Origin: Escherichia phage WG01 | Sequence record: NC_031928.1 | Length of the DNA: 64,000 nucleotides | Direction: 5' to 3' (one strand) | Part shown: piece by piece, positions 15,028-23,601 of the stretch | How the letters are laid out: the number at the start of each line of letters is the position of its first letter | Position numbering within the stretch: position 1 is the stretch's first letter | The notes under the pieces: generated by a model | What the model saw: only the letters and a program-made list of their open reading frames with translations | What the model was told of the DNA's origin: nothing | Databases searched by the model: none | Program-made: the position numbers and the translations under genes

Positions 15028-15053
15028 AAAAAAGGAGAGCATATGCTCTCCTT
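15028..15053. terminator. Bidirectional palindromic terminator between gp54 and the alt region
   Basis: Perfect palindrome GGAGAGCATATGCTCTCC flanked by A5 and TTT. Confidence 0.65.
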
Positions 15054-15060
15054 TAGGGGT

Positions 15061-15351
15061 TTATTTACGGAACGAAATGAAACCTGCTGTGGTCATTAGT
15101 GGTTGCTTTTTAACAAACACCGTAACCGAAATAGGAGCTTCGGATTCGAGTTGTCCTGTCACTACACCGTTAAAAATGTTTTCGGTTTGTTCTGGATAAG
15201 AAAAATTCTCAACAGGTCGGATATCAAACTGTTTGTCTTCACCGAAAACTCGACGTAATTCATTACCCACTGCACTGTCAAACTCTTCAGAAGCAGGGAT
15301 AACGTTTTCAACTACCAGTTCTTGACCATTAAAACGGAATGCAGATTTCAT
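15061..15351 (-). CDS. Hypothetical protein (96 aa), alt.-x position
   Basis: ORF downstream of the Alt-like cluster; no recognisable motif. Confidence 0.5.
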   Translation of the reverse strand: MKSAFRFNGQELVVENVIPASEEFDSAVGNELRRVFGEDKQFDIRPVENFSYPEQTENIFNGVVTGQLESEAPISVTVFVKKQPLMTTAGFISFRK

Positions 15352-15408: not shown

Positions 15409-17532
15409 CTACATTTTGAATTTATTTGATAAAGAAGAGATATCCAAAGACGCTGCAAGGATTTCCATAGCCTCGTTGCTTTCAGAAACAGATTCATTAA
15501 CCAAGAATTGACTGAACCCATCCATCAGGCGAACTTCACCAGTTTCCATCAAATGGTCACCATCGTAAACAGATTCGCTGAGCTCTGAAGGAGGTGTTAC
15601 GGTAGCTTCCATAAGGTATTTGTGAGATACTCTATCATTCATGGCAAAAGCCGCTACTTTATCAACCTTCAACAATAATCCACGCGGAAGGATAATTTCT
15701 GCTTCTTCGGCATATTCTGTAAGGTCACCAGGAGCGATAACTTTAACTGCTTCAGCACCTCGAATAACCATACCAATTTCAGCAATTCTATCTGCAGGAC
15801 CTTCAGGTGCAATTGGATTACCAAACTCGTCTTCTTCCCATTCTACCTCTTCGTCATCGACTTCACCTACATCAGATGAACTACCACTAGCCAATTTAAA
15901 CAACTCATCAGCGGAGGATAAAGAACCTTCACCGCCAACAAAAACGGCTTGGTTGTCGAGGGCCATATAATTTTTACCAAATTCACCAAAGATGTTAGGT
16001 TTTAGTGAGGCTGACACAAAGTTCTTAAAGTAAAATGTTTTGTTATCGATATTATGGCGCAGAATTTTGTATGGCAAATCCTGACCACGATACAAAATAG
16101 TACCCTTAGGAAGTTTAATACCCTTAGTAAATGCCGAGTCTAAATCCTTAATCAATTTAATAGCCGTTGTATTGTTTTCGGATTCAGGTTTACCTAAAAG
16201 GAATAAGTTCATAGGAGCATATTCAGCCGCGCAATATTCAATAATAGCATTGCTTTCGTCTTTGGTTAGGTCCTTAGGTTTAATGAGCTCGCCTGAATAA
16301 GCATATGCATCACTAATAGAATCGTTAACCAGTTTATAAACGGCTTCCATAGCGAAAGCAATTCTAGATGCTTTCTCTGAAGGGGAACCCTTAAAACGGG
16401 TACTCAGGTTATTAACAATTTTCTTAATAATATCCAGACTATTGGTTGTATTGATTTGCGAAAGGCCACTTAAAAGTCTATCGACTTCTGTATTAAAAAA
16501 TGCCATATTATTAGAGTAAATTTCAAACCCTTGTTTATCTCTATTAGCATAATTTAGTTTAAATTTACTATCAGTCATTAAAGCGTGTGTGAGAGCAATA
16601 GTGTATCTAAAGTTGGCAAGGTCCTCGCTCTTAGATTTAAACTGAGAAGCCTGACGCATTTTAGTAATGGCACCTTTTTTAAAGTTCTGACTAATCTGTT
16701 CAATACCTTCGTTCTCAGGGCCTTCAGCCGTGTGAACCGGTACAGAAGCTTCAAACTCGTTATAAACCTGCAATTCTTTAGGGGACAAAGTTTCAGGCTC
16801 AGCAGTAGAATACTGCGCCGCCGCTGCCATACGACGCGAAATCTTAGTACGAGTAATGACAGCCTTATCAGTACGTTTCTCTTCAACTTGTGCAATAGAT
16901 GCCGCTACGGCTTCGACCTTACTTACAGCCTGGCCGGTTTTCTTAGAAACATACACTTCGCCAACTTTAGACTCAACTTTAGTATAAAGATCGGCATTAA
17001 TTTCAGGCATACCCTTGATATCTTCAATATTAGCACCACGACGTACTAAAAGAACGTAGGTATGTTTTCCGCTGAATTGGAACATGTCGTCAACAACTTT
17101 AAACTTACCACCGGTACGAGCCATAGCCAAGCGAGCTAATACGCGCTGAACGGTAGGACCTTTACCTTTCATTTTCTTGGTAGGGAACCGGAAAAGAACT
17201 GCATCCATTTTAAGTTTGTTTACTTGTTCGTATACAGTATCAAAAATGGTATTCAGCGTACCAAGTGGGTCAGAACCTAACCCACCTTTCAACTCGGCTG
17301 GGCTACCCTTAGCAGACAAACTCATCAAAATAACATGAACATATTTGTCGCCCGGCTTAACCATTTTAATAGCGTCTCCTTGAGACGCATAAGATACCAT
17401 ACGAGCAACCAGATTATCATTACCTGGTGCTTGGATAGAGAAAATCTGTGGAATACCGGAACCCGGTTTAAGATTTGTTACTGGATAGTTTTTAGCGGAA
17501 TCACTATCAAAAACCTCATTTAAATTTTCCAT
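15409..17532 (-). CDS. alt: Alt-like ADP-ribosyltransferase paralog 1 (707 aa)
   Basis: N-terminal LNEVF (gp21-type L-x-E cleavage context) and conserved packaging region; C-terminal R-S-E motifs YRGQ, FVSASL, EEAEIILPRG. Confidence 0.85.
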   Translation of the reverse strand: MENLNEVFDSDSAKNYPVTNLKPGSGIPQIFSIQAPGNDNLVARMVSYASQGDAIKMVKPGDKYVHVILMSLSAKGSPAELKGGLGSDPLGTLNTIFDTVYEQVNKLKMDAVLFRFPTKKMKGKGPTVQRVLARLAMARTGGKFKVVDDMFQFSGKHTYVLLVRRGANIEDIKGMPEINADLYTKVESKVGEVYVSKKTGQAVSKVEAVAASIAQVEEKRTDKAVITRTKISRRMAAAAQYSTAEPETLSPKELQVYNEFEASVPVHTAEGPENEGIEQISQNFKKGAITKMRQASQFKSKSEDLANFRYTIALTHALMTDSKFKLNYANRDKQGFEIYSNNMAFFNTEVDRLLSGLSQINTTNSLDIIKKIVNNLSTRFKGSPSEKASRIAFAMEAVYKLVNDSISDAYAYSGELIKPKDLTKDESNAIIEYCAAEYAPMNLFLLGKPESENNTTAIKLIKDLDSAFTKGIKLPKGTILYRGQDLPYKILRHNIDNKTFYFKNFVSASLKPNIFGEFGKNYMALDNQAVFVGGEGSLSSADELFKLASGSSSDVGEVDDEEVEWEEDEFGNPIAPEGPADRIAEIGMVIRGAEAVKVIAPGDLTEYAEEAEIILPRGLLLKVDKVAAFAMNDRVSHKYLMEATVTPPSELSESVYDGDHLMETGEVRLMDGFSQFLVNESVSESNEAMEILAASLDISSLSNKFKM

Positions 17533-17535
17533 TAT

Positions 17536-19617
17536 TTACCCTTGGATGAATTTTTCTGGGATGTCATAGAGGTCTATGCATGAAGCCAAAAGAGGCAGTA
17601 CATCAAACCGTGTAGATTTAACAAATGAATCAAAAGATAAGGGGCTTTCGGAAGTATCGAAGTCATCTTGATATACGACCAACTCGCCGGTTTCCATTAG
17701 TACATCACCATCATATACCACAGATTCTTGAAGCTCATCTGTTGTCATAACTTCAGCTTGAATGAGTTTTGTATTACTAGATGTTGTTCCATCATTATTA
17801 GAAGCATCTGTTATTTTATTAACTTTGACCATTAATCCACGCGGTAGAATAACTTCAGCTTCAGTTGCTATTCCGAGATTTCCTGGATATACGACATTAA
17901 CTTTATGGGCCCCATCAATAGCCCATCCTATTTGAACTTTAACATAATCAGGATTTTCTTTATATGCTCTTATTTCATTAGGATTAATAGTTATTCCTTC
18001 TTCATTTTTATCAACTGTCAATTCGTTGCGAACTTCCGGTTCTAAAAGACCAATACCAGCGTGCGTAACACCAAAACGTCCGAAAATTATAGGAGTTAAA
18101 GAAGTAGATACAAAATTTCTAAAATAAAACACTTTATTTTTAACTAGTGCTTCGTATATAGGAGCAGTCATACTCTGGGCACGATAAACTGTAATGCCTT
18201 CCGGTATACGGTCACCATTTTCAAAAGCTGAATCTAAATTATTTACAGCGGATTCGATATCTTTTTCGCTCATAACCTCATAGTTCTGAGGATTATAACG
18301 TCCTAAAAGAAGATTATTTATGTCTGTATATCCTGAACCACAATATTCTCTGATACCACGCTTTTGTGATGGAGTATATTTAGAACCTTCACGAGCAATA
18401 GTAATATCAACCATAATACCACCACCCACACCAGCAAAACTATACACGCGTTTTTTAATGAACTTAGTCTTGGCTGCTTTCCACTTGGCCTCTGTCAATT
18501 CGTTCCAAAGGTCATCAGGTTGGCCTTTACGAGTTCTGTTATGGATAGCCAGCCACTCGCCTTTATATTCTTCGAAAATGGTATTAATAGCAGAGGCATA
18601 TTTTTCTAGAGCTTTAACAGATGTCAAAGGTTCGTTTTTTATTGCTGTAAGAATTTTCTCTTTAATTTTCTCTTGGATTTCACCAATACCGTGAAGTGGG
18701 AACAATTTATAGTCGTAATGCAATTCTTCAGCAGTGCCTTCAGCTACTATATTAGCAACCTTATTTTTAGCCGCAGGAGAATTGTTATTAGTAACCATTT
18801 CCTGAGCCTCAGGGATTAATGGAACTGTTGCCGGTTTATTAAAATCCGCTGCAGTAGCTTCATATTTCTTAAACAATTCACTTTCATTACGATAAGATTC
18901 CAATGATTGGCTTGCTGCAATGGCGCGCCTAGAAATCTTAGTCTTGGTTATAACCATTTTATCAGTGCGACGTTCTTCAACCTTAGCAATACTACCGGCG
19001 ATAGCAGTTTCTTTAGTAACCTGCACGCCTTCTTTTTTAGAAATATAAACTTCACCGACATCAGAATCTACCTTAGTATACAATTCAGCATTAATTCCAG
19101 GCATACCTTTGATATCTTCTATATCAGCTTGTTTACGAACTACCAGGATGTAAGTATGTTTACCGGTAAATTGGTACATAGCCGGAACTACTTTAAAACG
19201 TCCACCTGTTTTCTGTGCTACCAAACGTTGGATAATCCGTTGAACGATAGGGCCTTGACCTTTCATTTTCTTAGTAGGGAAACGGAACATCACGGCATCC
19301 ATACGAAGCTTTTTAACCTGTTCGAATACTACGTCGAAAATGGTATTAATAGCATCAATAGGAGTAGGGCCTAAGCCACCTTTAAGTTCTGCTGGAGTAC
19401 CTTTAGCTGAAAGGCTCATAAGGATAACGTGGGCATATTTATCACCCATCTTAACCTGTTTAATAGCATCGCCTTCAGAAGCATAGGATACCATACGTGC
19501 TACTAACTGAGACTCCGCGTCTCCAATCTTCCAAATCTGAGGTACTTTAAGTTTTGGGTTCAAGTTCACAACAGGCAGTGTACCTTCGGACTCGAACACT
19601 TCATTTAATTGGGTCAT
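17536..19617 (-). CDS. Alt-like ADP-ribosyltransferase paralog 2 (693 aa)
   Basis: Same N-terminal module (MTQLNEVF...MDAVMFRFPTKKMKGQ...ISRRAIAASQSLESY as remembered for T4 Alt); C-terminal YRAQ, FVSTSL, EAEVILPRG. Confidence 0.85.
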   Translation of the reverse strand: MTQLNEVFESEGTLPVVNLNPKLKVPQIWKIGDAESQLVARMVSYASEGDAIKQVKMGDKYAHVILMSLSAKGTPAELKGGLGPTPIDAINTIFDVVFEQVKKLRMDAVMFRFPTKKMKGQGPIVQRIIQRLVAQKTGGRFKVVPAMYQFTGKHTYILVVRKQADIEDIKGMPGINAELYTKVDSDVGEVYISKKEGVQVTKETAIAGSIAKVEERRTDKMVITKTKISRRAIAASQSLESYRNESELFKKYEATAADFNKPATVPLIPEAQEMVTNNNSPAAKNKVANIVAEGTAEELHYDYKLFPLHGIGEIQEKIKEKILTAIKNEPLTSVKALEKYASAINTIFEEYKGEWLAIHNRTRKGQPDDLWNELTEAKWKAAKTKFIKKRVYSFAGVGGGIMVDITIAREGSKYTPSQKRGIREYCGSGYTDINNLLLGRYNPQNYEVMSEKDIESAVNNLDSAFENGDRIPEGITVYRAQSMTAPIYEALVKNKVFYFRNFVSTSLTPIIFGRFGVTHAGIGLLEPEVRNELTVDKNEEGITINPNEIRAYKENPDYVKVQIGWAIDGAHKVNVVYPGNLGIATEAEVILPRGLMVKVNKITDASNNDGTTSSNTKLIQAEVMTTDELQESVVYDGDVLMETGELVVYQDDFDTSESPLSFDSFVKSTRFDVLPLLASCIDLYDIPEKFIQG

Positions 19618-19625
19618 AATCTATC

Positions 19626-21521
19626 CTATTTAAATAAATTTGCTAATTTTTCCATAGAATCTTCATACATAATTCTATCATAATTTCCAAACGAGAATCC
19701 GGTGCTATATGAATTTTCCTCTGTGATTTGCTCGGTAGCTACAACTTCACATTCCACTAAAACATATTTACCAATTGAACCCATAGGTCCCTTGGAAGCA
19801 CCGTATACTTTATTAATCTTAAGCATAACCCCACGAGGAAGAATTACTTCGGTTTCTGTAGACCAATTAGCCAAGTCACCGGGCACAATAACCTTAATTT
19901 TATCAGCACCTTTAATAATTAACCCTAGCTTAATGGTATCTCTAGCACTTCCGGTCGCACTTTTAATGGTGTCTTCAAGATTACTATCTATATCGCTAGA
20001 AAGAGCTTCAGGGTCTAAGTTGGATTGAGCATGACCCATTTCACCGAAAATATTAGGAGCCAATGAAGTTGATGCAAAAATAGGAAGATACATCACCTTA
20101 TGTTTTATAGAATTCAAAGCCATTTCGGTAGGCATTATCTGAGAACGATACACTATGGTTCCTTTAGGAAGTTTTGTACCATTTTCAAATGTAGAATCCA
20201 ACTCACCAATCATTTTTATCATTTCATCGGTGGTATCTGTTTTACCTAGCAAAAAGTTGTTTATATGGTTGTAGCCGCCACGAGTATACTTTTTGACTGC
20301 CTCTTCTTGAGGTTTGGATAAATTAGGATTATCAGATATCTTAAACAACGGTTGGATAGATTTTGTATAAACTGCTACTAAGGATTTTATTACTTCCTTG
20401 ATTTTAGATTCTCTAGCCCAAGTACCTTTAACTGAATCATCTAAAAGGGCCGCAGCGACTAGTCTAAGAATGTCTACATGAGATTTACCTGATTTTAAAG
20501 CCTCTATGACACTATTAGATTTATCTAAAGAATCTGATGCCTCTAAAGCAAACTTTATATCAGCAATTAGTTTAAGTTTGCGCTCGTCTACTTCAAATGA
20601 TGGATTAACACCGTTAAAAATATAATCCAAATATTCTGCCATTTCTTTAGAGGCGTCTTTTAATATTTTATTACTGGCTAAAGCTATTTGGCTTTCTTTA
20701 GAATCTTCAGAAGAATGAACGGAACTAGTAGCAGAATAATCTGCATAAGCTTTTTTGTGCTCTGCCGAAAATTTACTCAATCCTGTAGGCTCGGCGGTAG
20801 AATATAACGCATTTATAGCGGCCCGTTTAGAAACCTTAGTCTTGGTTATAACCATTTTATCAGAACGTGATTTTTCTATTTCGTCTATAGACTTAGCTAT
20901 AGCTTCTAATTTGGTAACATCTTCGCCTGTTTTCTTTGAAACATACACATCACCGACTTCAGATTCGACTTTAGTATACAATTCCGGATTAATATTAGGA
21001 ATACCGTTTATTGATTCTATATTTTTATTTTTACGATAGATAAAAACATATGAATGTTTGCCTGTATATTGATACAAGGCATCAAGGACCTTGAATTGCC
21101 CACCTGCTCTAGTAGCTATTAATTTGGCTAGAACTCGTTGTACAGCTTTTTCCTGACCTTTCATTTTCTTAGTAGGAAAACGGAACATAACGGCATCCAT
21201 ACGGAGCTTTTTAACTTGTTCATAAACCGTATCAAATATAGAACGAATAGCGGAAATGGGGTTACTACCTAAACCACCTTTGAGTTCTGCCGGGGCCCCT
21301 TTAGATGATAGGCTCATTAAAATAATATGAACGTATTTGTCACCCGGTTTAACTTGGCGGATTGTATCACCTTCAGAAGTATATGAAACCATGCGTGCAA
21401 CAAGGTTCTCATTACCTTCAGCCTTTATATTCCAAATCTGTGGTACTTTAAGTTTAGGGTTTAAATTGACAGCTGATAAATCTATAGCGCCGTCAAATAC
21501 CTCATTCAATTGTTCGGACAT
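19626..21521 (-). CDS. Alt-like ADP-ribosyltransferase paralog 3 (631 aa)
   Basis: Same N-terminal module; C-terminal YRSQ, FASTSL, ETEVILPRG; divergent central region. Confidence 0.85.
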   Translation of the reverse strand: MSEQLNEVFDGAIDLSAVNLNPKLKVPQIWNIKAEGNENLVARMVSYTSEGDTIRQVKPGDKYVHIILMSLSSKGAPAELKGGLGSNPISAIRSIFDTVYEQVKKLRMDAVMFRFPTKKMKGQEKAVQRVLAKLIATRAGGQFKVLDALYQYTGKHSYVFIYRKNKNIESINGIPNINPELYTKVESEVGDVYVSKKTGEDVTKLEAIAKSIDEIEKSRSDKMVITKTKVSKRAAINALYSTAEPTGLSKFSAEHKKAYADYSATSSVHSSEDSKESQIALASNKILKDASKEMAEYLDYIFNGVNPSFEVDERKLKLIADIKFALEASDSLDKSNSVIEALKSGKSHVDILRLVAAALLDDSVKGTWARESKIKEVIKSLVAVYTKSIQPLFKISDNPNLSKPQEEAVKKYTRGGYNHINNFLLGKTDTTDEMIKMIGELDSTFENGTKLPKGTIVYRSQIMPTEMALNSIKHKVMYLPIFASTSLAPNIFGEMGHAQSNLDPEALSSDIDSNLEDTIKSATGSARDTIKLGLIIKGADKIKVIVPGDLANWSTETEVILPRGVMLKINKVYGASKGPMGSIGKYVLVECEVVATEQITEENSYSTGFSFGNYDRIMYEDSMEKLANLFK

Positions 21522-21543: not shown

Positions 21544-21551
21544 TATTTATG
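21544..21551 (-). promoter_or_regulatory. Late-promoter-like CATAAATA upstream of Alt paralog 3
   Basis: 7/8 match to TATAAATA on minus strand, 22 nt upstream of ATG at 21521. Confidence 0.3.
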
Positions 21552-21555
21552 CCAG

Positions 21556-21573
21556 AAAAGGCCCGAAGGCCTT
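21556..21573 (-). terminator. Hairpin terminator upstream of the alt cluster
   Basis: AAAGGCC-UUCG-GGCCUUUU on minus strand. Confidence 0.55.
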
Positions 21574-21754
21574 AAAGTGGTAGCAACGTACGGTATACTT
21601 CAAATTTAGGACCCTTTTCATAGCGGTCGAAATTATCTTTAAAATCAGCGAATGCGATTTCATTTTCAAATTCAAGGACAATTTGGGACACTGCAGTGGA
21701 GACATCCCCACCTTCTTTATATCCAATAACCACGGTTTCTAAATAAGCTTTCAT
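21572..21754 (-). CDS. Hypothetical small protein (60 aa from ATG)
   Basis: ATG at 21754 sits 2 nt after the ligase stop; track ORF extends to 21796. Confidence 0.45.
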   Translation of the reverse strand: MKAYLETVVIGYKEGGDVSTAVSQIVLEFENEIAFADFKDNFDRYEKGPKFEVYRTLLPL

Positions 21755-21755
21755 A

Positions 21756-23279
21756 TTATAGTCCAGTTTGAGACCAATCACCAAATACATCTTCAAATGT
21801 ATCAGCTTCTGTTTTATCGAAACGCCAACCTTTAATGATTGGAAGGAAAATACCTACAGTATCGGTACGTCCTTTAGAATGAACCCAACCATTACATTCA
21901 CAGTCAGCAATACGTCCAATCAACTTACCTTCACGAGCTTGTTTCATAAGAAGTTCACGGTCTAAATCAGGACGGTCTTCCAATGGAATCAATACTTTTT
22001 TACCTGATTTATCTTTCTTATGGGTGGTATCTTTAAAGCCTGAACCACAGTCGCTTGTAATTCGACGACAACGTGATACCAACTCGACACCACCTAGCTT
22101 GTTAGGGTCCTTCGAGTGTTCATAATAACCCACCACTTCTAAAGCAATATCGATTACTTCTTTGAACTTGATAAGATTCTTAGAACGACGGTTTTCCCAG
22201 TAGGAGTCCATGTTCTTAAGGATAATGCCTTCCAGACCTTGGTCGACATATTTCTTATAAACGACTTTAGCTTCTTCAAGATTATTAACCCACTGGTTTT
22301 CGATAGCTTCAACACGCGTTGTACCATGCGATACGACATTATGAGCAACCATAAGTTCTAAGGCTGTAAAGCGTACATCATACTTATCGCCTTTAATTTT
22401 ACCTTCGGAATATACGACATCCAATGGGACATAATCCCATGCCTGTAATACCATACCAGCGGCTTCAGTAGCCGAAATAGTTCCTTGAAGAGCTTTGTTA
22501 GCCAAGCCATTTGACGTAGAACGATCGGCGACAGTTTGGAATTCCTTAGCCTTACTTAATTCAGGAAGTTCCTCGTCAAACATACTAAACAAATCATTAG
22601 ATGCTTTAGGTTCTACCTTAGGAGTATGGTAAACTAATTCGCCATCAATCATAACGCCATTAGGATGGCGTTGTCGAGCTTCTTCGGTCATGGCCATTAA
22701 TTCAGCCGCCAAAAGATTAAGCCCTTGATATTCGTTACCACCACGAGTAAGGAATGTCACACCATCGTTACGAACTTCGGCAAAACAACGAGCACCATCA
22801 GCTTTTAATTGAGCAAACGCTGGCCATTTAATATTTTTCTTAATCAAAGCTTCATCATAAGAACTCGCCAACATCTGCGGTTGTTCAGGGATTAAACCTT
22901 TCCAAACCTTGTTAGCAATAGAAATCGATGCACCACATTCAAGGTCGCGCATCATTACACGACGTAATACCTCGGCATCCGGGGCCTTAGCATCAGCAAT
23001 GATTTGAGCCAGTTCTTCAATAGCCGCATTACCCGTAATCTTACGTGTGGCTAATGTGAATTCAGCGAAATCAAGAAGGTCTTCAAGAGTAATCATACCA
23101 AAGGATTGAGATGTAAATCCAGGTTCTGGCCACTTTTTAATACCGTAGTTCAGACGACGGGTATAAGCCATACGATAAACACGTTTCAGAAGCTCATTGT
23201 TCTTTTCACGAGCAATAATGGCTTCTTTAGCTTTAGTAGAATCAATAGCAGCAATTTCGTTTAAAATATCTAAAATCAT
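21756..23279 (-). CDS. 30: ATP-dependent DNA ligase
   Basis: Start at MILDILNEIAAIDSTKAKEAIIAREKNNELLKRVYRMAYTR, close to remembered T4 ligase N-terminus; SD GAGGTGAT; adenylation Lys in IKKW context. Confidence 0.93.
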   Translation of the reverse strand: MILDILNEIAAIDSTKAKEAIIAREKNNELLKRVYRMAYTRRLNYGIKKWPEPGFTSQSFGMITLEDLLDFAEFTLATRKITGNAAIEELAQIIADAKAPDAEVLRRVMMRDLECGASISIANKVWKGLIPEQPQMLASSYDEALIKKNIKWPAFAQLKADGARCFAEVRNDGVTFLTRGGNEYQGLNLLAAELMAMTEEARQRHPNGVMIDGELVYHTPKVEPKASNDLFSMFDEELPELSKAKEFQTVADRSTSNGLANKALQGTISATEAAGMVLQAWDYVPLDVVYSEGKIKGDKYDVRFTALELMVAHNVVSHGTTRVEAIENQWVNNLEEAKVVYKKYVDQGLEGIILKNMDSYWENRRSKNLIKFKEVIDIALEVVGYYEHSKDPNKLGGVELVSRCRRITSDCGSGFKDTTHKKDKSGKKVLIPLEDRPDLDRELLMKQAREGKLIGRIADCECNGWVHSKGRTDTVGIFLPIIKGWRFDKTEADTFEDVFGDWSQTGL

Positions 23280-23289
23280 AATCACCTCA

Positions 23290-23601
23290 TTAGTCATGGA
23301 TTCTATTATAAGCCACATCAGCCAAAAGCAAGTCTAATCGCTTATGATAAGAGAACACAAATCTCATTCGCCCATCAGATTTGAACTTGGACATAAAGTG
23401 GACATAAATGAATCCCTGTTCGACGCATTCGCGCCAAACAGGATGGTCTTTAGCCGGATTTACATCAAATGAGTAATCATGATTCACATGACGAATAAAC
23501 TGGTTTACATGACCATAATCCATTGTAGTGGTAGGACCATAGTCTGAAATTGTATGAACTACAAACATATTAACCTCGAGCAATCCATTCAACTGCGGCA
23601 T
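23290..23601 (-). CDS. Hypothetical protein (30.1 position, 103 aa)
   Basis: ORF in conserved 30.x cluster position. Confidence 0.5.
   Translation of the reverse strand: MPQLNGLLEVNMFVVHTISDYGPTTTMDYGHVNQFIRHVNHDYSFDVNPAKDHPVWRECVEQGFIYVHFMSKFKSDGRMRFVFSYHKRLDLLLADVAYNRIHD

Follow-up and report, generated by a model that had tools for sequence, protein, structure and literature searches.

We describe a tandem array of three alt genes in the genome of Escherichia phage WG01 (NC_031928.1), of which a 64,000-nucleotide (nt) stretch, hereafter the window, was analyzed. The array occupies positions 15,409 to 21,521 and consists of three consecutive minus-strand open reading frames (ORFs) at 15409-17532, 17536-19617 and 19626-21521, which are separated by gaps of 3 and 8 nt and code for proteins of 707, 693 and 631 amino acids (aa), here called alt707, alt693 and alt631. 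Profile searches and active-site conservation identify all three as full-length members of the T4 Alt family of ADP-ribosyltransferases (ARTs), with intact catalytic residues. We further propose, as the explanation that we consider likely, that the three genes form a late operon of arginine mono-ADP-ribosyltransferases that would be packaged into the phage head, trimmed and injected into the host, where they would act on different sets of targets. The window DNA belongs to a Dhakavirus (JS98-like, Straboviridae), a T4-type phage, and across its alt region it shares 96-98% DNA identity with several Dhakavirus genomes. In near-identical public genomes the three genes are already labelled 'Alt-like RNA polymerase ADP-ribosyltransferase' or 'NAD(+)--arginine ADP-ribosyltransferase', and tandem alt duplications have been present in the literature since 2006; the three-gene locus, which a preliminary description of this DNA had correctly observed, is an ordinary feature of this phage group that is both annotated and known.

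The membership of the three proteins in the ART superfamily, which the preliminary description had suggested should be checked by profile hidden Markov models, was borne out by matches to the Pfam family ADPrib_exo_Tox (PF03496) at 124.5 bits for alt693 (E-value 4.5e-36), 63.2 bits for alt707 (2.6e-17) and 51.9 bits for alt631, against a cut-off of 23.4 bits. Likewise, all three gave full-length matches to the 'Alt-like' PHROG 802 at E-values of 2e-207 to 3e-263, covering residues 1-707 of alt707, 1-692 of alt693 and 1-617 of alt631. The R-S-E core is present in each of them, as YRGQ, YRAQ and YRSQ, then SASL, STSL and STSL, then EAE, EAE and ETE followed by [IV]ILPRG in alt707, alt693 and alt631, respectively. 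The corresponding catalytic residues are R482, S507/S509 and E610/E612 in alt707, R479, S504/S506 and E586/E588 in alt693, and R459, S484/S486 and E556/E558 in alt631. Across 56 Alt-family representatives the arginine, the first serine and both glutamates are invariant, and the second serine is retained in 55, with a threonine in the remaining one. The three proteins possess the ART fold of the R-S-E ADP-ribosyltransferases of the Alt/VIP2 clade and display the full-length Alt architecture of N-module, helical region, ART domain and tail; by analogy to T4 Alt, we predict that they catalyze NAD+-dependent ADP-ribosylation of arginine. An E577A mutant of T4 Alt has been published as inactive (PMC11404850). 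In the RefSeq numbering of T4 Alt the glutamates of the E-x-E motif are E574 and E576, not 577; the numbering in that work is probably offset, and the mutation probably hits the second glutamate, equivalent to E612 of alt707, E588 of alt693 and E558 of alt631.

A sequence search of the PDB recovered no Alt homolog with a solved structure, the best matches being the ART domains of clostridial binary toxins at E-values of ~1e-3. The Alt proteins resemble these C3/VIP2/iota-type R-S-E toxins (PF03496) in having an ART fold with the active site R / S-T-S / E-x-E, but the identity is only 10-21%, and the toxins differ in using bacterial secretion or binary-toxin pores, not a phage head, for delivery and in lacking both the Alt N-module and gp21-type propeptides. 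Among the three window copies the ART domains are 36-44% identical in pairwise comparisons. That of alt707 contains a long, strongly acidic insertion, which includes SSSDVGEVDDEEVEWEEDEFGNPIAPEGP, at residues ~528-600 (window ~15691-15950, minus strand); it separates the S-x-S motif from the E-x-E loop and is absent from alt693, alt631 and T4 Alt.

Each of the three genes, all on the minus strand, can be divided into the same four parts. In alt631 (19626..21521) these are the N-module (aa 1-235, 20817-21521), a helical central region (aa 236-398, 20328-20816), the ART domain (aa 399-601, 19719-20327) and a predicted C-propeptide (aa 602-631, 19629-19718). The equivalent boundaries in alt693 (17536..19617) are aa 1-233 (18919-19617) for the N-module, aa 234-411 (18385-18918) for the central region, aa 412-631 (17725-18384) for the ART domain and aa 632-693 (17539-17724) for the predicted C-propeptide. 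In alt707 (15409..17532) they are aa 1-236 (16825-17532), aa 237-418 (16279-16824), aa 419-653 (15574-16278, including the acidic insertion) and aa 654-707 (15412-15573). This architecture, as well as the locus, is that of T4 Alt (gpAlt, NP_049811), an NAD+:arginine ADP-ribosyltransferase that phage T4 packages in its head and that is processed by gp21. The window gene order gp29-48-54 / alt.-3 / alts / alt.1 / gp30 DNA ligase matches the T4 alt locus, with shared synteny of gp54, alt.-3, alt, alt.1 and gp30, and the likeness extends to an upstream hairpin plus late-promoter-like element, the catalytic residues and both cleavage-site motifs. T4 differs in having one intact copy and a decayed second N-module (alt.-1/alt.-2) where the window has three intact genes, and between T4 Alt and alt707 or alt631 only the N-module and the ART core are shared, the central regions being 13-14% identical.

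Each T4 head contains ~40 copies of Alt, a core protein that leaves it together with the DNA upon ejection (PMC5694885, PMC9026906). Cleavage of T4 Alt by gp21 has been mapped by mass spectrometry to a site near either end, following ITE-6 and LTE-619, with the removal of 63 C-terminal residues (PMC5694885), and we checked both positions in the T4 Alt sequence (NP_049811). The preliminary description had seen in the N-terminal L-N-E a prohead protease context; indeed, this motif aligns with the experimentally mapped ITE-6 in all three copies, so that cleavage is predicted after E7 of the propeptide MSEQLNE in alt631 (21501..21521, minus strand), after E6 of MTQLNE in alt693 (19600..19617, minus strand) and after E6 of MENLNE in alt707 (17515..17532, minus strand). 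The second mapped T4 site is kept as L-S-E653 in alt707, L-Q-E631 in alt693 and I-T-E601 in alt631; in the column of LTE-619 the predicted C-terminal sites, again on the minus strand, are accordingly E-L-S-E (15574..15585), E-L-Q-E (17725..17736) and Q-I-T-E (19719..19730), after which acidic tails of 54, 62 and 30 aa follow. Over the whole family the N-terminal column fits [LIVMF]-x-E in 53 of 56 representatives, and the C-terminal column fits in 55 of 55 sequences, with an invariant glutamate and a hydrophobic residue at P3. Tails in the family range from 25 to 77 aa (63 aa in T4), those of the window have isoelectric points of 4.0-4.5 (4.5 for alt631), and in the AlphaFold model of alt631 the confidence collapses directly after E601, with a predicted local distance difference test (pLDDT) score below 50 in the tail. 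Because the gp21 sites of T4 Alt are conserved in all copies and throughout the family, the C-terminal tail is probably a family-wide cleavable propeptide and not an unrelated region conferring specificity. The extreme C-termini had earlier been taken to be unrelated to each other. This stands for alt631, whose tail is short and divergent and is orthologous to that of Shigella phage SP18 altA (53% identical). It does not hold for alt707 and alt693: between their tails the identity is 35-36%, with the T4 Alt tail it is 37-59%, and the motifs SV.YDGD.LMETGE and LA(A/S).(L/I)D...KF are shared. Cleavage at both sites would yield mature proteins of 647 aa (71.1 kDa) from alt707, 625 aa (69.5 kDa) from alt693 and 594 aa (65.3 kDa) from alt631.

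Further contextual information is consistent with processing in the prohead. The near-identical genome OR756449 codes for a head maturation protease, a scaffold and core proteins just beyond the start of the window, and the complete gp24 homolog within the window (MSKIVDLIKE/STL start) keeps a gp21-type I-K-E at residue 10. In the virion of a Klebsiella T4-like phage an Alt homolog was detected at 189/191 peptide-spectrum matches (PMC13119998). By homology, these observations support packaging and processing, and we propose the following course of events. Alt precursors, each composed of a propeptide ending in L-N-E, an N-module of ~230 aa, a helical region that differs between the types and is joined to an R-S-E ART domain, and an acidic tail of 30-62 aa behind a conserved [LI]-x-E, would be incorporated into the prohead core, where a gp21-type head protease would trim both ends to give mature enzymes of ~71, 69.5 and 65 kDa. 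These would be held in the DNA-filled head, ejected into the host with the DNA and, using NAD+, would ADP-ribosylate arginines of host proteins ahead of any phage gene expression. The N-module would fit the head or ejection machinery of the resident phage, and the helical-plus-ART cargo would move between genera at the module borders.

Packaging itself has been shown only for T4 Alt and, by mass spectrometry, for the Alt homolog of one Klebsiella phage, and space for internal proteins in the head is limited, both of which would fit a scenario in which only alt693 is packaged and injected, with alt707 and/or alt631 acting late inside the infected cell or being excluded from heads. We regard this as improbable given that all three copies keep the N-propeptide, the N-module and the C-terminal site, which are conserved family-wide, that the genes lie 3-8 nt apart behind one late-type promoter from which they would be co-transcribed, and that the N-module occurs in Alt-like proteins alone, always at their very start. 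ModA and ModB, which act early inside the infected cell, are ~200 aa long and lack the Alt N-module.

Late transcription of the three copies may be directed by elements upstream of the array. A GC-rich, terminator-like hairpin, aaggccttcgggcctt (21558..21573, minus strand), overlaps the stop codon of alt.1; the identical 16-nt sequence lies upstream of T4 alt, and a terminator upstream of alt has been reported to be conserved in 5/6 T4-like genomes (PMC1524935). A simple terminator scan of the window did not flag this hairpin. It is followed by a late-promoter-like box, CATAAATA (21544..21551, minus strand), 22 nt upstream of the alt631 ATG, which matches the T4 late consensus TATAAATA except for one mismatch, at position 1; the homologous place upstream of T4 alt, behind the identical hairpin, is occupied by a perfect TATAAATA. 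We rejected statistical support for the promoter, as sequences within one mismatch of the consensus are not enriched in the window (117 found versus 147 expected); the support therefore consists only of the positional homology with T4. At the other end a strong intrinsic-terminator-like hairpin with a ten-pair stem followed by TTTTGTT (15031..15054, minus strand) closes the alt / alt.-3 unit. We infer that one late transcript spans the three alt genes.

We then compared the copies domain by domain with those of IME08, QL01, T4, teqhad, SP18 and one Aeromonas phage, and observed that they sort into distinct orthologous types. On this basis alt693 is assigned to type A (altA) as the ortholog of T4 Alt, to which it is related from end to end (N-module 45%, central region 34%, ART 62%, tail 57-59% identity). 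Its identity per domain is 95-98% to IME08 altA and QL01 gp200 (95-97% to IME08 altA alone), and its ART domain matches that of gp207 of the Tequatrovirus teqhad at 95% aa and 86-95% nt identity. Similarly, alt707 is assigned to type B (altB), with identities per domain of 91-100% to IME08 altB and QL01 gp198 (91-99% to IME08 altB alone). Full-length orthologs of its cargo at ~50% identity occur in many two-copy Tequatroviruses, such as teqhad with gp206 and gp207, where gp206, the second alt gene, is the type B ortholog with 47% identity in the central region, 60% in the ART domain and 59% in the tail. T4 retains at the altB position only the decayed second N-module, the alt.-1/alt.-2 remnant (L002:1066-1451), which translates as MELITELFDGASAPVV…PGFRFCTYTSGGDTN and then stops; it is of the T4-lineage N-module type. 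The third copy, alt631, is assigned to a rarer type (C) as the ortholog of altA of the Gaprivervirus SP18, with identities of 70% in the N-module, 50% in the central region, 70% in the ART domain and 53% in the tail. Its cargo occurs at >=99% identity in 6 of 50,697 phage records; with an SP18 ortholog at 50-70% identity, we rejected the idea that this cargo is an orphan.

The order of the altA and altB genes in the window is that of the altA/altB pairs of JS98-like Dhakaviruses (IME08, JS10) and of the two alt genes of Tequatroviruses such as teqhad, from all of which the window phage differs by the additional alt631 inserted upstream of altA. Three-gene alt arrays are also found in QL01 and its relatives, where the third gene is of a fourth type (D), resembles SP18 altB, has an N-module derived from altB and lies between altA and altB. 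As the content and placement of the QL01 array differ from those of the window, with its type C gene upstream instead, three-gene arrays arose at least twice. Multi-copy arrays are common in general: we counted 1,745 N-module loci across 1,200 phage records, and individual genomes carry between 1 and 4 of them. The Aeromonas phage avDM10-HWA (Biquartavirus; L006:4128-8917) has two full-length alt genes coding for 639 and 640 aa. Their N-modules share 57% identity, against only 36-45% in comparisons with other genera. In this phage tblastn identified four Alt-like places, all annotated 'hypothetical protein'.

That related phages carry anywhere from 1 to 4 copies, that T4 lost its second copy, that T4 Alt is non-essential (PMC9026906) and that all three window copies have the identical arginine-type E-x-E catalytic core might be taken to mean that they are redundant, modifying the same targets, with the array providing dosage or being the neutral product of a recombination hotspot. 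Yet the ART domains share just 36-44% identity, the central regions are unrelated, and each type has orthologs in other genera at 50-95% domain identity, as expected of old and separately maintained genes and not of recent dosage duplicates, making such redundancy highly improbable. In particular, the cross-genus orthologs of type B (60% ART identity in teqhad gp206) and type C (70% in SP18 altA) point to each type having been long maintained.

The evolution of the individual domains was examined using neighbor-joining trees with 200 bootstraps, in which we contrasted the tree of the N-modules with that of the ART domains, and using breakpoints derived from nucleotide sliding windows. The N-modules group by phage lineage (Dhakavirus together with SP18 altA, Tequatrovirus, and Aeromonas phages) with 100% bootstrap support, whereas the ART domains group across genera by cargo types A, B, C and D, also with 100% bootstrap support. 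In teqhad gp207 (L005:1205-3298) the nt identity to T4 alt is 93-99% over codons 1-225 and 87-96% in the tail, and its ART region is instead 86-95% identical to alt693, with sharp breakpoints, indicating that gp207 is a natural chimera produced by a recent exchange of an ART cassette between Tequatrovirus and Dhakavirus. The conflicting tree topologies and the sharp nucleotide breakpoints therefore indicate cassette exchange, in which cargo is traded between genera and the N-module stays with the resident lineage. A further graft is seen in QL01 gp199 (L004:3037-5082), which combines type D cargo with an altB N-module: its first ~100 codons match alt707 at 100% nt identity, after which the gene resembles SP18 altB, with 81-95% nt identity across the central region (~aa 250-375). 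The three window N-modules are mutually 68-75% identical at the nt level and lack long identical tracts, and we consequently found no support for recent gene conversion among them; QL01 gp199, by contrast, represents a recent graft of an altB N-module.

The divergence of the cargo bears on the targets of the three enzymes. The preliminary description considered the central regions unrelated, and this is largely accurate, with 10-24% identity over ~170 aa and no significant BLASTP match, except for ~58 residues shared by alt707 and alt631 (E-value 2.6e-5) that open their central regions and adjoin the N-module. The central region is all-helical. Being the ortholog of T4 Alt, alt693 probably acts on RNA polymerase alpha and the other T4 Alt targets. 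For alt707 and alt631 different target sets are most likely, because the helical regions are unrelated, the ART domains are as divergent as noted above and the loops preceding E-x-E differ. The three substrate specificities suggested in the preliminary description are plausible.

In light of pre-made, injected enzymes acting before phage gene expression, the extra Alt types might chiefly be counter-defence effectors that disable host immunity proteins, such as toxin-antitoxin and abortive-infection toxins, in which case the cassette exchange would reflect an arms race. The cargo turns over rapidly, with four types and swaps between genera, and the MazF toxin is reportedly among the proteins modified by T4 Alt. 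Viral ARTs have been described as fast-evolving conflict genes (PMC9503650), and mutations in the neighboring alt.-3 can counter the CmdTAC system: T4 Alt.-3 variants with spontaneously extended C-termini abolish CmdTAC defence by blocking CmdA degradation (bioRxiv 10.1101/2024.02.24.581662). As the sequence points to no specific defence system, we treat counter-defence as a possible, though not a probable, variant of the proposed packaged operon, with which it is compatible.

The N-terminal module common to the three proteins, which had been delimited at about 230 aa, extends over ~235 aa; it is 64-68% identical among the copies and 42-46% identical to that of T4 Alt, and the motifs originally quoted for it are present with small variations (such as MDAVLFRFPTKKMKGK and KISRRM in alt707 and KVSKRA in alt631). 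A word-indexed protein search with the N-module returned 3 matches, and an exhaustive HMMER search of 1.84 billion clustered proteins showed that it defines a small family of 71 representatives, in which it is always N-terminal. PF03496 is found in 60 of 66 scanned N-module proteins, and most of those without a Pfam ART match contain truncated or degenerate ARTs, leading us to reject the N-module as a general adaptor for diverse cargo or toxins. The rare proteins without such a match include P0069 (541 aa), P0065 (1142 aa), P0064 (485 aa) and P0067 (347 aa). Of these, P0064 and P0065 contain degenerate ART-like motifs in which Y-K replaces Y-R, P0065 has in addition ~600 extra C-terminal residues, and P0069, whose cargo is devoid of ART motifs, may carry a different effector. 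A precomputed Pfam family, PF26846, sits on the N-module.

AlphaFold models, which cover alt631 (pLDDT 84, predicted template modelling score 0.75) and the alt693 N-module, give the N-module a weakly GNAT-like predicted fold, a resemblance at the fold level only. A relationship to GNAT proteins at the sequence level was rejected: the N-module had no match in Pfam at E-values up to 1 and none in NCBIfam, there was no GNAT among the matches of a PDB profile search at E-values up to 10, and the conserved KGGLG segment lies within a 16-residue loop that is not a canonical GNAT motif A (Q/R-x-x-G-x-G/A). Hence, that the N-module is a GNAT-type acyltransferase or a domain binding coenzyme A or nucleotides and not an adaptor for packaging or ejection, which would make each Alt a two-enzyme effector, is in our view unlikely, albeit compatible with the packaged, injected array proposed here. 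In the literature that we searched we encountered neither this GNAT-like predicted fold, nor the sorting of Alt cargo into four types, nor domain-level mosaicism with lineage-bound N-modules, nor a C-terminal processing site conserved throughout the family.

The combination of a conserved delivery part with swapped C-terminal enzymatic cargo follows the same logic as MuF-fused or polyvalent packaged effectors and polymorphic toxins (concept in PMC5512222 and PMC9503650). Unlike in those systems, Alt diversity is confined to a single enzyme family, and neither the three window proteins nor the scanned members of the N-module family showed a MuF domain; the only Pfam domain to score significantly, in the window copies as in 60/66 of the family, is PF03496. 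A bolder formulation, which we consider doubtful, would cast the alt array as the phage-head counterpart of polymorphic toxins, with a lineage-bound docking N-module and at least four interchangeable cargo types, traded between genera, that would each disable a different host target, defence proteins possibly among them. Taken furthest, the N-module itself, with its weakly GNAT-like predicted fold and conserved Gly-rich loop, may be catalytic or cofactor-binding, which would make every Alt a bifunctional injected effector.

Several points weigh against the proposed operon of packaged enzymes with separate targets. The [LI]-x-E motif is weak, with 6-14 occurrences per protein, and the assignment of the cleavage sites therefore rests on their alignment to the mapped T4 sites and on conservation. 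All steps after translation are extrapolated to the Dhakavirus Alts from T4 homology, and the structure models are limited to alt631 and the N-module of alt693. The late-promoter box is mismatched at its first position and statistically unenriched. T4 Alt reportedly modifies many proteins, and the three target sets could overlap heavily. Finally, the binding of the N-module to the lineage could equally be explained by gene conversion between tandem copies and not by co-adaptation with the head.

Alt is the textbook case of an enzyme that is pre-loaded in the phage head and delivered ahead of gene expression, and second and third Alt types occur in many T4-like phages, several of which are candidates for phage therapy. 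The present analysis sorts the copies into four orthologous cargo types, predicts exact mature termini and names the catalytic glutamates. Moreover, the natural chimeras mark swappable module borders that could guide the engineering of T4-type heads for the delivery of chosen enzymes. These results are leads for experiments, not evidence for a new kind of system, and leave the basic picture unchanged.

Among the other genes of the region, two tandem gp24-like capsid vertex genes lie at 7-924 and 924-2204 on the plus strand, the first being cut by the start of the window; OR756449 labels both 'capsid vertex protein'. We considered the first ORF of the window as gp23 and rejected this, as it codes for a second gp24-like vertex protein. 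The last gene of the alt cluster is a homolog of alt.-3 (15061..15351, minus strand; 96 aa; PHROG 1739, E-value 2.6e-42) in the position of T4 alt.-3, preceded by a sigma-70-like promoter match (15408-15380, minus strand); it is 291 nt long in the window and is annotated as 321 nt in IME08. Upstream of the array lies a small conserved ORF, a homolog of alt.1 (21572..21754, minus strand; PHROG 1976, E-value 4.1e-31). In the ORF list it extends over 21572-21796 (74 aa, TTG start) and overlaps the ligase ORF at 21756-23318 (520 aa), both on the minus strand; homology and the OR756449 annotation point to a shorter alt.1 and a ligase of 1524 nt. The PHROG 1976 match starts at residue 15 of the listed alt.1 ORF, OR756449 annotates the gene as 183 nt, and the true start of alt.1 is probably the ATG at 21754, giving a protein of 60 aa.

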